Assembly: GCA_030538155.1 (NCBI GenBank)
Contig: JAUNUN010000001.1
Span: forward strand, 18,654-82,653
Length of the DNA: 64,000 nt
From: a bacterium
GTDB taxonomy: Bacteria; Desulfobacterota; Desulfobulbia; Desulfobulbales; Desulfobulbaceae
Direction: 5' to 3'
The notes beneath the pieces were generated by a model. The model was given only the letters and a program-made list of their open reading frames with translations. It ran no database searches and was not told the DNA's origin. A program made the position numbers and the translations under genes. Below are positions 4,589 through 63,308 of the stretch, in pieces. The first letter of the stretch is position 1. The number at the start of each line of letters is the position of its first letter.

Positions 4589-4771
4589 GACGAATAGGAA
4601 AGAGTTGCCGCGTCAACTTCCTGATTCCATTGATACACCAGACTTCGTGAGTATCGGCCCCAGCAAGTGCTTGCTGAACGTACGGGTATTATTTCGACAG
4701 CCTCACTTCTCTGATACTTTTGCGCTGATCTGTAAATGGAATGACACTGCCAATATGAATAAAAATAGAAC

Positions 4772-10131: not shown

Positions 10132-10233
10132 ATCAGCGACCTCGAGTTAGAGCCATTTCTAGTGCACCACGCATGAATGCAGCAGAAGATATTGTAAAAA
10201 ACTGAGGATTGGCGGCCTGACTCGGCTTCTTCC

Positions 10234-10352
10234 ATTCCAAGATTAATGGAAACATACCAAAAAGGTGAGGCAAATGCGACGCAAGCGCACCTGCACTCCT
10301 GCAAGCATGCGGAGAACTCGACACAGATAAGGCTTGGACACAGTGGTGGAAT
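10234..10352 (-). repeat. Copy D (diverged) of the ~120-nt imperfect-palindrome intergenic repeat
   Basis: The minus strand starts at the dprA stop codon. It shares ATCTGTGTCG with copy A and TGCGTCGCATTTGCCT (16/16) with copy B. Terminal arms ATTCCA/TGGAAT pair, and the length (119 nt) matches the other copies. Confidence 0.6.
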
Positions 10353-11518
10353 TACCCTCGCACCTTCTCATACAACTGGCCGGGCAGTTGCCGTACCAGG
10401 CCCTGTAGTTCCAAGGTTAAGAGCAGAGGTTGCAAAGTGGCAAGAGGCATATTTGTTTTCCGGGTCAGGCTGTCGATATCAGCGGGATACACATCAAGCG
10501 CCCGCAAAACCTGCTGGGCGGGCGGCGGTAAGTCCTGCTCGGCCTCCTGGATCTCGCCTACCGTGGCGGCACTTGCAGCAACAGGCCAGGATAGTGCTTC
10601 GAACACATCCTCAACCCGTTGCACCAGGATGGCCCCCTGTTGGATAAGCCAGTGAGCGCCGCTGCTTTTAAGGGAATCGATGCGGCCCGGAATGGCCAAC
10701 ACCTCCCGGCCCTGATCCAAGGCCAGGCGGGCGGTAATAAGCGAGCCCGATTTTTCGCCGGCCTCAACCACCAGTACCGCCTGGGCAAGGCCGCTAATGA
10801 TGCGGTTGCGGATAGGGAAGCGGAAGGCCTCGGGCCTGGTTCCTAAAGGAAATTCCGAAACAACCGCGCCGTTTGCGGCAATGTCGTCCAGAAGCCGCCG
10901 GTGCGTTGCCGGATAGGCCACATCCACCCCGCAGCCGAGCACGGCCACGGTTTTGCCGTGCACCTGGAGCGCGCCCTGATGGGCGGCGGCGTCAATGCCG
11001 TAGGCTGCGCCGGAAACAATCACCAGCCCGCGCTGCGCCGCAGTCTGGGCAAAGTGGCGCGCAATTCTGCGGCCGTAGTCGCTGGCGCTTCTGGCGCCAA
11101 TCACCGCCAACATAGGCTCGTGCAAAAACTCGACCTGCCCCCGCACGTAGAGCAATACCGGTTTATCGGCAATATCGCGTAGTACGGGCGGATATTCAGG
11201 GCAGGTACAGGAAAGGAGGGAAATGTTGTGACGGAAAAGCGCTTCCAACTCTCGCAGGGCACGCTCTCCGGCGGTGGCTATGGCCTTGTCGTCACTGAGC
11301 AGGGCAGCCAGCCCAGGCCCCAAGCCGGGACAAGGCTCTGTCGCCTCTTTTTTGTGTTCCAGCACGGCGCGGGCAGAACCCCAAGCTGTTACCAGCCGGG
11401 CAATGCGGGTGCAGCCTAGTCCCGGCAGGAATTGCAAGGTCAGCCACTGTTCCGCGTCCGGACAAATCAAAGGCGCTCTTTTCAAATCTGTTCCCTGGCT
11501 GCCAGAAGTATTCGTCAA
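10352..11518 (-). CDS. dprA: DNA-processing protein DprA/Smf
   Basis: VIVSGAAYGIDAAAHQGAL Rossmann-like core, SGSLITAR, and a C-terminal winged-helix tail. Confidence 0.9.
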   Translation of the reverse strand: MTNTSGSQGTDLKRAPLICPDAEQWLTLQFLPGLGCTRIARLVTAWGSARAVLEHKKEATEPCPGLGPGLAALLSDDKAIATAGERALRELEALFRHNISLLSCTCPEYPPVLRDIADKPVLLYVRGQVEFLHEPMLAVIGARSASDYGRRIARHFAQTAAQRGLVIVSGAAYGIDAAAHQGALQVHGKTVAVLGCGVDVAYPATHRRLLDDIAANGAVVSEFPLGTRPEAFRFPIRNRIISGLAQAVLVVEAGEKSGSLITARLALDQGREVLAIPGRIDSLKSSGAHWLIQQGAILVQRVEDVFEALSWPVAASAATVGEIQEAEQDLPPPAQQVLRALDVYPADIDSLTRKTNMPLATLQPLLLTLELQGLVRQLPGQLYEKVRG

Positions 11519-53298: not shown

Positions 53299-53303
53299 GG
53301 CTA

Positions 53304-53426
53304 TTCCATTTCCGTATCAAAGCCCTATCTGTGTCGGCTCCGGCAAATACTCCTCGGAGTACCATATGTACACCTGTGTCGTATTTGCCTCGCCTCCTTG
53401 ATATCTTCTTTGATCTGGAAATGGAA
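53304..53426 (+). repeat. Copy A of the ~120-nt imperfect-palindrome intergenic repeat
   Basis: Nested stems: TTCCATTTCC/GGAAATGGAA (53304-13 with 53417-26), GTATCAA/TTGATAT, GGCAAATAC/GTATTTGCC (53342-50 with 53381-89), and an apical ACTCCTCGGAGT hairpin. Confidence 0.85.
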
Positions 53427-53477
53427 CACTCCCAAAGCAAAGCAAGATAGGCAAGAGATCCGCCGGACCAATTTCCC

Positions 53478-53636: not shown

Positions 53637-54890
53637 ATGCCCGTCTATGAATATACCGCTCTCGATGCCCGAGGTAAGCAGGTACAGGGTATTGTCGATG
53701 CCGACTCACCGGGCGCCGCCCGCCAAAAAATCCGCAGCCAGGGCAAGTATCCGGTCACAATCGAGGAAACGGCGACAAGGGCACACTTCAGCATCAGAGG
53801 CCTTTCCCTGCCGTTTTCCGGTGCAAGTTGGGCAGGTTCTACGAGTTGGACCAGCTGGATCAGGGTACAAGATATCCACCTCATCACCCGCCAACTGGCC
53901 ACCCTGCTGGCAGCGGGCATTCCCCTGGCCCCGGCCCTGGGCGCTCTCATCGAGCAGGGCGAACAGCGGAGCCTGAAAACGGTTCTGGCCCAACTGCGCG
54001 CGGCCGTGCATGAAGGCCAGTCCTTCAGCAGCGCGCTCAGTGCCCATCCCCGGCTCTTTTCCCCCATCTATATCAATATGGTACGGGCCGGCGAGGCCTC
54101 CGGCACCCTGCACCTGGTCCTGGAGCAACTGGCCGAGTTCGGCGAACGTCAGCAGGCACTCCAAGCCCGCATCCGCGGCGCCATGCTCTACCCGGTCTTC
54201 ATGGCCCTGGTCGGCGTGGCGGTGCTGGCCTTCCTCATCACCTTTATCCTGCCCAGCATAACCAGTGTCTTTGCGGGCAGCGAAAAGGCCCTGCCCCTGC
54301 CCACCACTTTGCTCATGGGCCTAAGCGGCCTGCTGCGCGCCTACCGGCTGCCGCTGCTCCTGCTGATCTTTGCCCTCATTGCCGGGCTGCGCCATTTTCT
54401 GCACACGCCTCAAGGCGAAGAGCGCTGGCACAAGGTGCAGCTCTCCTTGCCTCTTTTCAAAGGGCTGATCCGCAAACAGGCTGCGGCCCGTTTCGCGCGC
54501 GGCCTGGCCGGCCTGCTTCACTCGGGCGTGCCCTTGGTGGATGCACTCGCCATTGTCGAAAACCTCGTTGGCAATGTGCACATTGCCCGCTTGGTTGCGG
54601 ATGCCCGCGTTGAGTTGGAAAAGGGTCGGAGCCTGGCTGCACATTTCCGAGGCAATCCGTATTTTCCGCCCATGCTGGTACAGATGATGGCCGTGGGCGA
54701 GCAGAGCGGCGAGCTGGATACCATGCTGGCCCGCGCCGCCGACAGCTACGAGCGGGAATTGGAAACCAAGATCATGGCCTTAACCTCCATGATCGAACCG
54801 CTCATGATTCTGCTCATGGGTGCTGCCGTGGCCTTTATCGTGGTGGCCGTGCTCTTGCCCATTTTTGAGATGAATCAGCTCATCAGGTAG
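53637..54890 (+). CDS. gspF: Type II secretion system inner-membrane platform protein GspF
   Basis: MPVYEYTALDARGKQVQG N-terminus, a duplicated T2SSF domain and three TM segments. Confidence 0.92.
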   Translation: MPVYEYTALDARGKQVQGIVDADSPGAARQKIRSQGKYPVTIEETATRAHFSIRGLSLPFSGASWAGSTSWTSWIRVQDIHLITRQLATLLAAGIPLAPALGALIEQGEQRSLKTVLAQLRAAVHEGQSFSSALSAHPRLFSPIYINMVRAGEASGTLHLVLEQLAEFGERQQALQARIRGAMLYPVFMALVGVAVLAFLITFILPSITSVFAGSEKALPLPTTLLMGLSGLLRAYRLPLLLLIFALIAGLRHFLHTPQGEERWHKVQLSLPLFKGLIRKQAAARFARGLAGLLHSGVPLVDALAIVENLVGNVHIARLVADARVELEKGRSLAAHFRGNPYFPPMLVQMMAVGEQSGELDTMLARAADSYERELETKIMALTSMIEPLMILLMGAAVAFIVVAVLLPIFEMNQLIR

Positions 54891-54891
54891 C

Positions 54892-55011
54892 TCCAATGCC
54901 ATATCAAAGCGCCCTCTGTGTCGGTTTCGGAAAATGCTCCTCGGAGTACGGTATTAGGCCTGCGTCGCATTTGCCTGGCCTCCTTGATATCATCTTTGAT
55001 CCGACATTGGA
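54892..55011 (+). repeat. Copy B of the ~120-nt imperfect-palindrome intergenic repeat
   Basis: Begins 2 nt after the gspF TAG, and its last 22 nt overlap the gspE 3' end on the other strand. Stems are TCCAATG/CATTGGA, ATATCAA/TTGATAT and GGAAAATGC/GCATTTGCC (one mismatch). Confidence 0.85.
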
Positions 55012-56756
55012 CTCACCCTGAACACTTCCTCCAGGGTGGTGATGCCGGCCAAAACCTTGGCGATGCCGTCGTCGCGCAGGCTGCGCATGCCGCCATCCGG
55101 TTCGGCCAGGGCCGCCTCCTTGATCTTCCCCGCCTCAGAGGTCGTCAAGAGCAGATTCTTGATGACCGGGCTCAGGGGCATAAGCTCAAAAATGCCGATG
55201 CGCCCCCGGTAGCCGGTTTGCCGGCAGGCGCTGCAACCACAGCCGCGGTAAAACTGCAGCTCACTGTTCGCGACAGCGGCAGGCGGCAGCCCGGCCAGTT
55301 GCAGCAGTTCAGCCGAGGGCTGGTAGGGCTCGCGGCACTGCGGGCAGATGGTGCGCACCAGGCGCTGGGCCATGATGGCATTGACCGAGGAGGCCACCAG
55401 AAAGGGCTCCACCCCCATGTCGATCAGGCGGGTGACGGCGCCGGCCGCGTCGTTGGTATGCAGGGTCGAAAAGACCAGATGCCCGGTCAGGGCCGATTGA
55501 ATGGCAATCTGCGCGGTCTCGCCGTCGCGAATCTCCCCCACCAGAATCACATCCGGGTCCTGGCGCACAATGGTGCGCAACCCGCTCGCAAAACTCAGGC
55601 CGATACGCGCATTGACCTGCATTTGACTGATGCCGTTGATCTGGTATTCAATCGGGTCTTCAATGGTGATGATGTTGATATCCGGCGTGTTGAGCACATT
55701 GAGCGCCGAATACAGGGTAGTGGTCTTGCCGCTGCCCGTGGGCCCGGTCACCAGGATGATGCCGTGGGGCGCGGCAATGAGCCTGCGAAAGAGCTGAAAA
55801 TCCGCCGCGCTCAGGCCCAGGTCGCCAAGGGGCAGGAGGGTATTGGCCTTATCGAGCAGGCGCATCACCACCCGCTCGCCAAAGGCGGTGGGCAGGGTGG
55901 AGATGCGGATATCCACATTGCGCTGGGCTATGCGGATTTCGATACGGCCATCCTGGGGCAGGCGCTTTTCGGCAATATCCATGCCCGCCATGATCTTGAT
56001 GCGGGAAACCAGCCGGGCCTGGGAGTGCCGGGGCGGGGTGTACATGTCGTAGAGGATGCCGTCCACCCGTTTGCGGATCTTGACCCGGTCACGATAGGGT
56101 TCTATGTGGATGTCGCTGGCCCCTTCGCGCACCGCCTGCGTTAAAACCAGGTTGACCAGCTTGATCACCGGCGCGTCGCTGGTGTCGTCAAGTAAATCTG
56201 CCGTCTCCTCGATGGCGGTGAGGATACTGGCCGGGTCTTCCTCGTCCATATCCTGCATGACCTGATCCGCCACCTGGGCACTGGTCTGGTCGTAGGCGGC
56301 ATTGATGGCCTTCACTATCTCCGCCTCGGGTGCCAGCACCCAGGCCACGCCTTCCCACTCGAGCAGGCGGGCAAGGTCATCGGCCTGTTGGAAAAAGGCC
56401 GGGTCGGCCAGGGCCAGCCATGAACCTTGCGGGGTGGCCACCGGTATCATCTTGAACTTTTTGAGGCCGGCGATACTCACCCTGGAGACAAAGAAGGGGC
56501 TGATGCCTTCAGGCAGGCGCTCCATAAGGGGCAGGTCGAACTGCTGTCCAAGTGCCCCGGCAAGCTCGGCCGCACTGATCGCCCCCTGCCGCAGCAAAAT
56601 CTCACCCAATCTGCCGCCCTTTTCCGCCTGCAGGGCCAGGGCCGCCTGCAGGGCGCTCTCCTCAAGGCCGCAGCTCTTTTGCAGCAACTCACCCAAAAGG
56701 GGAAAATCTACAGCGGGTGGTACGGCCGCAGATTCCTGCGCTGTTCCCGGCTGCAT
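54990..56756 (-). CDS. gspE: Type II secretion ATPase GspE
   Basis: T2SSE_N domain, Walker A VTGPTGSGKTTTL, Asp/His boxes and a tetracysteine motif (CPQC...CSAC). ATG 56756 lies 1 nt after the gspD TAA. The ORF-track extension to 56963 overlaps gspD and was rejected. Confidence 0.93.
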   Translation of the reverse strand: MQPGTAQESAAVPPAVDFPLLGELLQKSCGLEESALQAALALQAEKGGRLGEILLRQGAISAAELAGALGQQFDLPLMERLPEGISPFFVSRVSIAGLKKFKMIPVATPQGSWLALADPAFFQQADDLARLLEWEGVAWVLAPEAEIVKAINAAYDQTSAQVADQVMQDMDEEDPASILTAIEETADLLDDTSDAPVIKLVNLVLTQAVREGASDIHIEPYRDRVKIRKRVDGILYDMYTPPRHSQARLVSRIKIMAGMDIAEKRLPQDGRIEIRIAQRNVDIRISTLPTAFGERVVMRLLDKANTLLPLGDLGLSAADFQLFRRLIAAPHGIILVTGPTGSGKTTTLYSALNVLNTPDINIITIEDPIEYQINGISQMQVNARIGLSFASGLRTIVRQDPDVILVGEIRDGETAQIAIQSALTGHLVFSTLHTNDAAGAVTRLIDMGVEPFLVASSVNAIMAQRLVRTICPQCREPYQPSAELLQLAGLPPAAVANSELQFYRGCGCSACRQTGYRGRIGIFELMPLSPVIKNLLLTTSEAGKIKEAALAEPDGGMRSLRDDGIAKVLAGITTLEEVFRVSPMSDQR

Positions 56757-63120: not shown

Positions 63121-63171
63121 ATTGGTTCTTTATCGTGCTGATACATCATACTATTCATTCCTCTATCGTAT

Positions 63172-63294
63172 TCCGGTTCCAGACCAAAAAAATGTATCAA
63201 GGAGGCAAAGAAAATACGACGCAAGTGTACAGAGAGGCACTCCGAGAAGTATTTTCCGATGTCGACACAGGTAGCGTTTTGATATGGAATCGGA
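63172..63294 (-). repeat. Copy C of the ~120-nt imperfect-palindrome intergenic repeat
   Basis: The minus strand begins 14 nt after the gspK TAG and ends 51 nt before the gspL ATG. Stems are TCCGATTCC/GGAACCGGA (one mismatch), TATCAA/TTGATA and GGAAAATAC/GTATTTTCT (terminal G.U). Confidence 0.85.
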
Positions 63295-63308
63295 CTTATT
63301 CAATCCGC

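Follow-up and report, generated by a model that had tools for sequence, protein, structure and literature searches.

The window analysed here is a stretch of 64,000 nucleotides from a bacterium of the Desulfobulbaceae (GCA_030538155.1, contig JAUNUN010000001.1, positions 18,654 to 82,653), and the locus of interest is the divergent spacer between recN and gspF, which contains a repeat of ~125 bp that recurs at three further places in the window. This locus leads one to ask if the repeat is a structured RNA, as proposed in an earlier, sequence-only reading that described nested stems maintained by compensatory changes, or a mobile element. We conclude that the repeats are very probably a non-autonomous DNA transposon, a bacterial miniature inverted-repeat transposable element (MITE) of ~125 bp in a small Desulfobulbaceae lineage. 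The four copies (A–D) are members of a family with at least 45 copies; MITEs are a known kind of element, and this family is a new one, restricted to a narrow lineage of Desulfobulbaceae. Homologues of RecN and DprA assign the window to an uncultured member of the Desulfobulbaceae, and an exact look-up of its RecN gave no record.

The copies lie at essentially the coordinates and on the strands first reported for them, and they align over ~125 nt with pairwise identities of 56–78%. Their positions, their scores with a covariance model (CM) of the family, and their flanking triplets are as follows.

53304-53426, plus strand: copy A, a full-length element (142 bits) in the divergent recN/gspF spacer; flanked by CTA (53301-53303) and CAC (53427-53429)
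54891-55012, plus strand: copy B (112 bits), between the convergent gspF and gspE; begins immediately 3' of the gspF stop codon TAG (54888-54890), with TCA (55013-55015) on the right
63171-63295, minus strand: copy C (118 bits), in the gspK-gspL spacer and in the orientation of both genes; flanked by TAA (63296-63298) and TAC (63168-63170)
10230-10351, minus strand: copy D (73 bits), the most diverged of the four, between dprA and rpe; left triplet TAA (10352-10354), the dprA stop codon, right triplet GAA (10227-10229)

Occupied and empty insertion sites

Empty orthologous sites exist in sister species for all four of the window loci. At site D, locus L086 (DprA 81% identical) is empty and reads GGGA TGA GTTGTTCC, in which the TGA is the dprA stop codon, and locus L085 (DprA 88% identical) is filled and reads GGGA TGA[ATTCA...GGAACTGGAA]TGA GCTGCTTC. 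Here the stop codon itself forms the 3-bp target-site duplication, which is decisive; the flanks at sites A and C are too diverged for a duplication to be read, and it was site D that settled the point. L062 and L066 lack the element at site B, and their gspE and gspF overlap there at GGG TTA CCTGATG with a single TTA; in the window and L044 the filled site reads GGG TGA[element]CTA or TTA CCTGATG; an orthologous filled copy B is present in both L044 and L082. Site A is empty in L062 (RecN 84% identical) and in L066 (from JABMJC), with recN-gspF spacers of 215 and 253 nt as against 338 nt in the window, a difference for which the element accounts entirely; the closer relatives L082 and L084 carry the element at this site. 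The gspK-gspL spacer at site C is 188 nt long in the window and 54 nt long in L068, which lacks the element.

The species with the 84% identical RecN lacks copies A, B, and C, and JABMJC lacks A and B (its locus stops short of site C); a CM search of ~120 kb of loci, much of it redundant, from species lacking the window copies revealed no copy. In closer relatives (RecN 89–91% identical), A and B occupy the corresponding positions. Of 39 copies of the family, eleven are flanked by TAA/TAA and two by TTA/TTA; left and right triplets are correlated in their middle base (Fisher p = 0.004) and are identical in 13 copies (permutation p = 0.026).

The defining features of bacterial MITEs are set out in the review by Delihas (PMC2229807), and those found here are 19-nt terminal inverted repeats (TIRs), small size, lack of a conserved open reading frame (ORF), AT-richness, and dispersed copies. 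The sequence-only reading, which had considered the repeat to be a REP/ERIC-like intergenic element of no named family, was correct insofar as this is an ERIC-like palindromic repeat with no match in Rfam, E. coli, plasmids, or phages, and incorrect in the comparison with REPs, which it resembles neither in size nor in architecture. That reading also set its RNA proposal against a MITE with terminal inverted repeats, and in form (TIRs, 3-bp duplication, empty sites) it is such an element that we find.

A plausible mechanism is that a transposase acting in trans would bind both 19-nt TIRs (TTCCAnTTCCAnATCAAAG) and make a staggered 3-nt cut at T-N-A, most often TAA or TTA but at times TGA; the element would then be joined and gap repair would double the target triplet. 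From the 3-bp T-N-A duplication only, we infer a transposase of the IS5 family (IS427/IS1031-type) or a PIF/Harbinger-like DDE enzyme. IS1237, an IS5-family insertion sequence (IS), duplicates TTA or TAA, and targets of three nucleotides characterise the IS1031 group (PMC2516522); canonical Harbinger transposons, relatives of IS5, likewise produce 3-bp duplications (PMC12730594). The element thus shares with the IS427/IS1031 groups of IS5 and with PIF/Harbinger a 3-bp T-N-A duplication that is mostly TAA or TTA (PMC2516522, PMC12730594), but unlike IS5-family insertion sequences it has no transposase gene, and its terminal repeats (TTCCAnTTCC...) differ from the ends of IS1237 (GAGGTGGTTTCAGTAGTCG; PMC2516522); the duplication is what ties it to IS5.

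Extent and architecture of the family

Genome and metagenome scans located the family only in a few related Desulfobulbaceae metagenome-assembled genomes (MAGs) and metagenome contigs. A two-box pattern, which matches the window four times (0.01 expected), returned 61 loci from 185,579 species genomes; the genuine matches are 26 loci in three Desulfobulbaceae/Desulfobulbus MAGs (CAZEIT01, JAAYIE01, and JABMJC01), and the others are lone, isolated matches in unrelated taxa that we judge to be due to chance. The covariance model added copies lacking exact boxes, such that the window and the 26 loci together contain 40 strong matches in 232 kb, and a metagenome scan with a one-arm pattern identified 12 further contigs, each match being a full-length copy.

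The family consensus is TAA-TTCCAnTTCCATATCAAAGCCCTATCTGTGTCGGCTTCGGAAAATGCTCCTCGGAGTACCnnTATGTACGCCTGCGTCGCATTTnCCTCGCCTCCTTGATATCATCTTTGATCTGGAAnTGGAA-TAA. Elements are non-coding and 119–134 bp long across the family, with a GC content of 0.40–0.52 compared to ~0.59 for the window, and are thus AT-richer than the host. The 19-nt TIRs form a terminal helix (helix 1) in which 85% of positions are paired across an alignment of 28 copies. The corresponding parts of copy A are:

53304-53322, plus strand: left terminal inverted repeat (TTCCATTTCCGTATCAAAG), matched both as an inverted repeat and by the TIR pattern
53408-53426, plus strand: right terminal inverted repeat (CTTTGATCTGGAAATGGAA), which pairs with the left arm
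53329-53336, plus strand: box 1 (CTGTGTCG) in the 5' arm, a conserved stretch that is left unpaired, kept in young copies and decayed in old ones
53375-53399, plus strand: box 2 (TGTGTCG), followed by GTATTTGCC (3' side of the inner stem) and then CCTCCTT

The two 19-nt arms of copy A are 89% complementary and 85 nt apart. Box 1 (CTGTGTCG) is present in all four window copies, with the second TG(T/C)GTCG 35–39 nt downstream, and A, B, and C have the CCTCCTT run, its place in D being taken by CACCTTTTT. The boxes had been described as invariant, but they decay in older copies that were found without using them as a search pattern, and their apparent invariance arises in part because the copy set was collected with the box pattern. 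Besides its dyad symmetry, the element contains an internal direct repeat of ~30 nt (consensus ~29–58 and 75–103), each unit consisting of a CTG(T/C)GTCG box followed 12–14 nt later by a CTCCT(C/T)GA-like box.

On the reverse strand, most copies carry AAGGAGG-N7-ATG within box 2 and the inner stem (e.g. window 54961-54990). The Shine-Dalgarno (SD)-like motif is present in 28 of 40 copies and together with the ATG in 20 of 40, and copy A has ATA on this strand (53375-53399) where most family members have the ATG. The only recurring ORF is one of ~22 codons (MRRRRT...) on this strand, which differs between copies by frameshifts and stop codons; a conserved micro-peptide was considered and rejected, as the frame is not conserved. 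The motif is probably a relic of the start of the parent's transposase gene. It could also start spurious translation where the element is inserted in antisense orientation.

A scan against Rfam 15 gave no match at gathering scores and none overlapping any copy up to E = 5, and blastn detected no match to the element in plasmids or phages, or (word size 11) in 5,426 complete E. coli genomes. Complete E. coli genomes are expected to carry ERIC copies. No paper mentioning MITEs in Desulfobulbaceae was found in the literature.

The closest parallel in form is ERIC, or IRU (127 bp; PMC2229807), which like the element described here is a multi-copy imperfect palindrome of similar length (~125 bp here), non-coding and mostly intergenic, whose transcript would form a single long stem-loop. 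As in ERIC and the wider MITE class, there are TIRs, T..A at the termini, a target-site duplication, a composition AT-richer than the host, and filled and empty sites between related species, and like ERIC the element can be co-transcribed or co-translated with its neighbours, the GspE tail discussed below being element-derived. It differs from ERIC in having no sequence similarity (no blastn match in the 5,426 E. coli genomes), in its Desulfobulbaceae host, in having half of its copies exactly on a stop codon, and in its 19-nt inverted repeats, as seven contiguous pairs are listed for ERIC. ERIC, RUP, and Correia elements duplicate TA, whereas the duplication here is the 3-bp T-N-A. The Correia/NEMIS elements of Neisseria are likewise abundant MITEs (~100–155 bp) with long inverted repeats, which are co-transcribed with their neighbours, carry incidental expression signals, and can be fused to ORFs; they duplicate TA and have an IHF site and RNase III processing, and neither their sequence nor their host is related to the Desulfobulbaceae element.

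Two other kinds of palindrome were weighed against this evidence and rejected. A REP/REPIN-like or IS200/IS605-type palindrome would move as single-stranded DNA by means of an HUH (Y1) transposase or a REP-associated tyrosine transposase (RAYT) that recognises the hairpin and places the element 3' of a short target, with no duplication; in its favour, the element is a hairpin-forming palindrome whose complementarity persists although its sequence varies, TAA stands on the 5' side of 23 of 39 copies, and site B alone cannot separate insertion 3' of a TAA from a 3-bp duplication. Site D, however, is a true TGA duplication, and the middle bases of the flanks co-vary as a duplication predicts and as a fixed element end would not. 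The long terminal repeats moreover pair with each other and do not form a separate subterminal hairpin at each end, there is no conserved GTAG-type head, and the ~125 bp element is far above the size of REPs, which are ~20–40 nt. On its end sequences, size, and target duplication we therefore consider this origin very improbable. Integron attC recombination sites are imperfect palindromes of similar size that follow cassette ORFs in the orientation of the gene, and the size (~125 bp), the imperfect dyad symmetry, the sense position directly 3' of stop codons, and a structure kept more than the sequence are all reminiscent of them. The element ends are TTCCA...TGGAA and lack RYYYAAC/GTTRRRY core sites, the copies lie scattered between housekeeping genes (recN, the gsp operon, dprA/rpe) rather than in cassette arrays, a 3-bp target duplication is present, and empty and filled sites differ by the element alone and not by an ORF plus a site, a structure that contradicts an integron. 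With both the end sequences and the target duplication against it, the attC reading is scarcely credible.

Pairing, strand preference, and decay of the rod

RNAalifold applied to the 28-copy alignment recovered only the inner and apical helices together with a spurious 3' hairpin; a rod of 43 pairs was therefore drawn by hand and its pairs counted over the 28 copies and in 500 shuffles. Standard pairs occupy 86.2% of cells, compared to 82.8% in the shuffles and 32–43% when the register is slid by 1–3 columns; cells in which both sides have changed number 44, compared to 16.4 in the shuffles and 9–25 in the slid registers. None of the 500 shuffles reaches the observed value by either measure. 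The compensatory changes follow a few subfamilies.

Both the outer and the inner stem noted previously are real, as is the covariation reported in the inner stem, both at position 8 (GC in 18 copies, AU in six) and, in the larger family, at position 3 (AU in ten, CG in five, GC in three). The assertion that all four copies fold into the same rod is correct only in part, as the complete rod is the minimum free energy (MFE) structure of A (z = -6.9) and of C (z = -2.7), whereas B forms only the outer part with a different interior and D forms no rod (z about -1 for both). The apical hairpin ACTC/GAGT is present in one subfamily only, the other (CTCGCAGGACGTAC) extending a GTAC-centred (GTAC...GTAC) hairpin. 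The middle stem, described as TATCAA/TTGATA, was mispaired: the true partner of the 5' ATCAAAG is the distal CTTTGAT and not the TTGATA inside CCTCCTTGATA. The TTGATA pairing was rejected on three copies in which a C-G pair has become T-A together with the distal partner while TTGATA is unaltered.

G.T pairs had been taken to point to an RNA read in the consensus orientation, but over the 43 pairs and 28 copies there are 60 G.U and 69 A.C combinations and thus no excess of G.U, and for three of the four window copies the opposite strand gives a fold at least as stable. The fold energies of the complementary and consensus strands are -56.9 and -45.4 kcal/mol for A, -37.9 and -35.2 for B, and -37.6 and -33.4 for C, and for D the complementary strand is slightly worse (-31.9 compared to -34.8). 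Elements end in GGAA followed by T-N-A, and terminator-like sites (a GC-rich hairpin and a T run) were found neither within copies A–D nor at their ends; the proposed terminator function was rejected on these grounds. The rod fold follows from the near-palindrome, in which two similar ends are joined, and does not in itself point to a dedicated RNA gene.

The proposal of an RNA structure read in the consensus orientation finds no support in orthologous copies either, which drift near-neutrally and without compensation. Between the window and CAZEIT, orthologous B copies are 73–77% identical, and in the adjacent gspF the same comparison gives 66% identity at third codon positions and 83.5% overall; orthologous copies thus decay at a near-neutral rate, and the CAZEIT copy B has lost pairs of the outer and middle stems with no compensating change.

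At both the A and B loci the window copies carry a CTCCTCGGA-GTAC apex and the CAZEIT-lineage copies one of the CTCGCAGGACGTAC type, and the two sides of the apical stem differ together (A compared to L082:3532-3662 and L084:521-651; B compared to L044:6973-7105). The copies at these loci share unusual flanks (CTA to the left of A; a CTCC start, a GGAC end, and TCA on the right for B), which argues for their orthology, and the apex therefore changed after insertion. This suggests gene conversion between dispersed copies or hairpin-templated repair, and either process yields 'compensatory' pairs without any selection on RNA.

Stop codons, neighbouring genes, and derivative copies

For 18 of 42 copies the triplet on the left is also where a co-oriented upstream ORF (149–1314 aa) has its stop codon, and for three more the triplet on the right is the stop codon of a convergent gene. 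Copies abutting a stop thus number 21 of 42 (50%), compared to ~14% expected from the 83 TAA stops and 501 TAA/TTA triplets in non-coding sequence of the same 232 kb (p = 4e-8), and they are strongly biased to the sense orientation (18:3, p = 0.0015). Copies not abutting a stop have roughly balanced TAA and TTA flanks in a tally of those listed, and between co-directional genes overall there are 12 sense and 10 antisense copies. Because the duplication regenerates the stop codon, insertion there is harmless to the upstream gene, which illustrates how a transposon can insert at gene ends without damage. Since TAA and TGA stops are themselves T-N-A sites, on-stop insertions would spare the upstream gene and would be preferentially kept, and both the stop enrichment and the sense bias presumably reflect selection rather than target choice.

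Four points weigh against the MITE interpretation. The compensatory changes exceed those in the shuffles, which a purely neutral palindrome does not automatically predict; the flanking triplets are identical in just 13 of 39 copies; the 18:3 sense bias hints at an orientation-dependent constraint that a symmetric T-N-A insertion does not explain; and searches of the window, of ~0.6 Mb of fetched loci, and of the metagenome matches turned up no autonomous element whose ends match. Solo TIR-like sites in the fetched loci were all truncated or internally deleted copies, and no inverted repeats of IS scale were detected when the window was scanned for them.

An alternative is that the element, although mobile in origin, has been co-opted as a cis-acting RNA, as ERIC and Correia elements have been. 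The sense rod immediately 3' of a stop codon, co-transcribed with the upstream gene, would protect or process the 3' end of the mRNA, or the CCUCC run would affect the translation of neighbouring genes; antisense copies, whose transcript would have a strong SD and AUG, would be selected against. The sense bias at stops against roughly balanced TAA/TTA flanks elsewhere, the stable rods of A and C, and the excess of compensatory changes all fit such a role, and ERIC is known to have orientation-dependent effects on mRNA stability (PMC2229807). Against it, there is no excess of G.U over A.C, three of the four copies fold no worse on the opposite strand, neither B nor D has the full rod as its MFE fold, pairs were lost uncompensated from the orthologous B copies, which evolve at about the neutral rate, copies between co-directional genes are almost evenly oriented (12 and 10), and no terminator-like sites were found at A–D; the both-side apex changes, moreover, look like conversion or templated repair, such that compensation needs no RNA selection. 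We consider co-option unlikely, if deserving of some weight. A domesticated, stop-codon-anchored regulatory module, in which the sense rod acts on RNA, antisense copies are harmful, and the copies homogenise each other, is an improbable outcome; if it were true, the rod 3' of the stop would protect the 3' end or set the ratio of expression within an operon, the antisense harm would lie in a transcript with a strong SD and AUG, and the apex subfamily switch at two orthologous loci would be concerted evolution that keeps the palindrome intact. The 18:3 bias is the best remaining hint, and a testable one, of an orientation-dependent ERIC-like effect on mRNA, but no more than a hint in a small sample from few related genomes.

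Insertion has altered the neighbouring genes at several sites. Copy A lies in the divergent recN/gspF spacer as first described, its 5' end 5 nt from the recN ATG (53298, minus strand), and has replaced the 5' leader directly upstream of recN. The terminal purine-rich GGAAATGGAA of the element is 6–15 nt upstream of this ATG (window 53299-53330, minus strand), at the position of a ribosome-binding site, and may be the candidate ribosome-binding site of recN; in L062 and L066, which lack the element, an unrelated native recN leader occupies this position. Copy B has split the overlapping ends of the convergent gspF and gspE, which overlap by 8 nt in the empty-site relatives. The last seven codons and stop codon (54990-54992) of gspE are inside copy B (54990-55012, minus strand), and GspE, which ends ...RVT* in those relatives, ends ...RVSPMSDQR* in the window, having gained a new seven-residue tail. 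Copy C is inside the gspK-gspL operon junction.

For annotation, the ~125-bp rods in these Desulfobulbaceae MAGs should be masked as mobile repeats and not recorded as small RNAs or terminators. The elements also explain contig breaks and variable spacer lengths, and their pattern of presence and absence can be used as a strain or species marker for this uncultured lineage.

A probable fifth copy in the window is strongly decayed:

4625-4741, plus strand: TTCCATTGATAC...CTGTAAATGGAA, within a CM match at 4622-4745 that scores 18.9 bits (E = 0.03); TGA on either side (4622-4624 and 4742-4744)

This copy was recovered with the CM filters both on and off, and its assignment is marginal. Derivative forms are present elsewhere. 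A mini-palindrome of ~55 bp at L001:2078-2137 consists of just the two terminal repeats (TTCCGGTTCTCAATCAAAG...CTTTGATATGGAACCAGTA) and corresponds to an internal-deletion derivative, and solo left arms at L003:173, L005:823, L030:2856, and L053:5521 are truncated copies. At L010:844-1025 the 3' arm of a family member is interrupted by a different element of ~170 bp with perfect 13-bp inverted repeats (CCTGAATCCGTGA...TCACGGATTCAGG) and a 5–6-bp duplication ((G)ATTAT), which appears to belong to a second, unrelated MITE-like family nested in the first.

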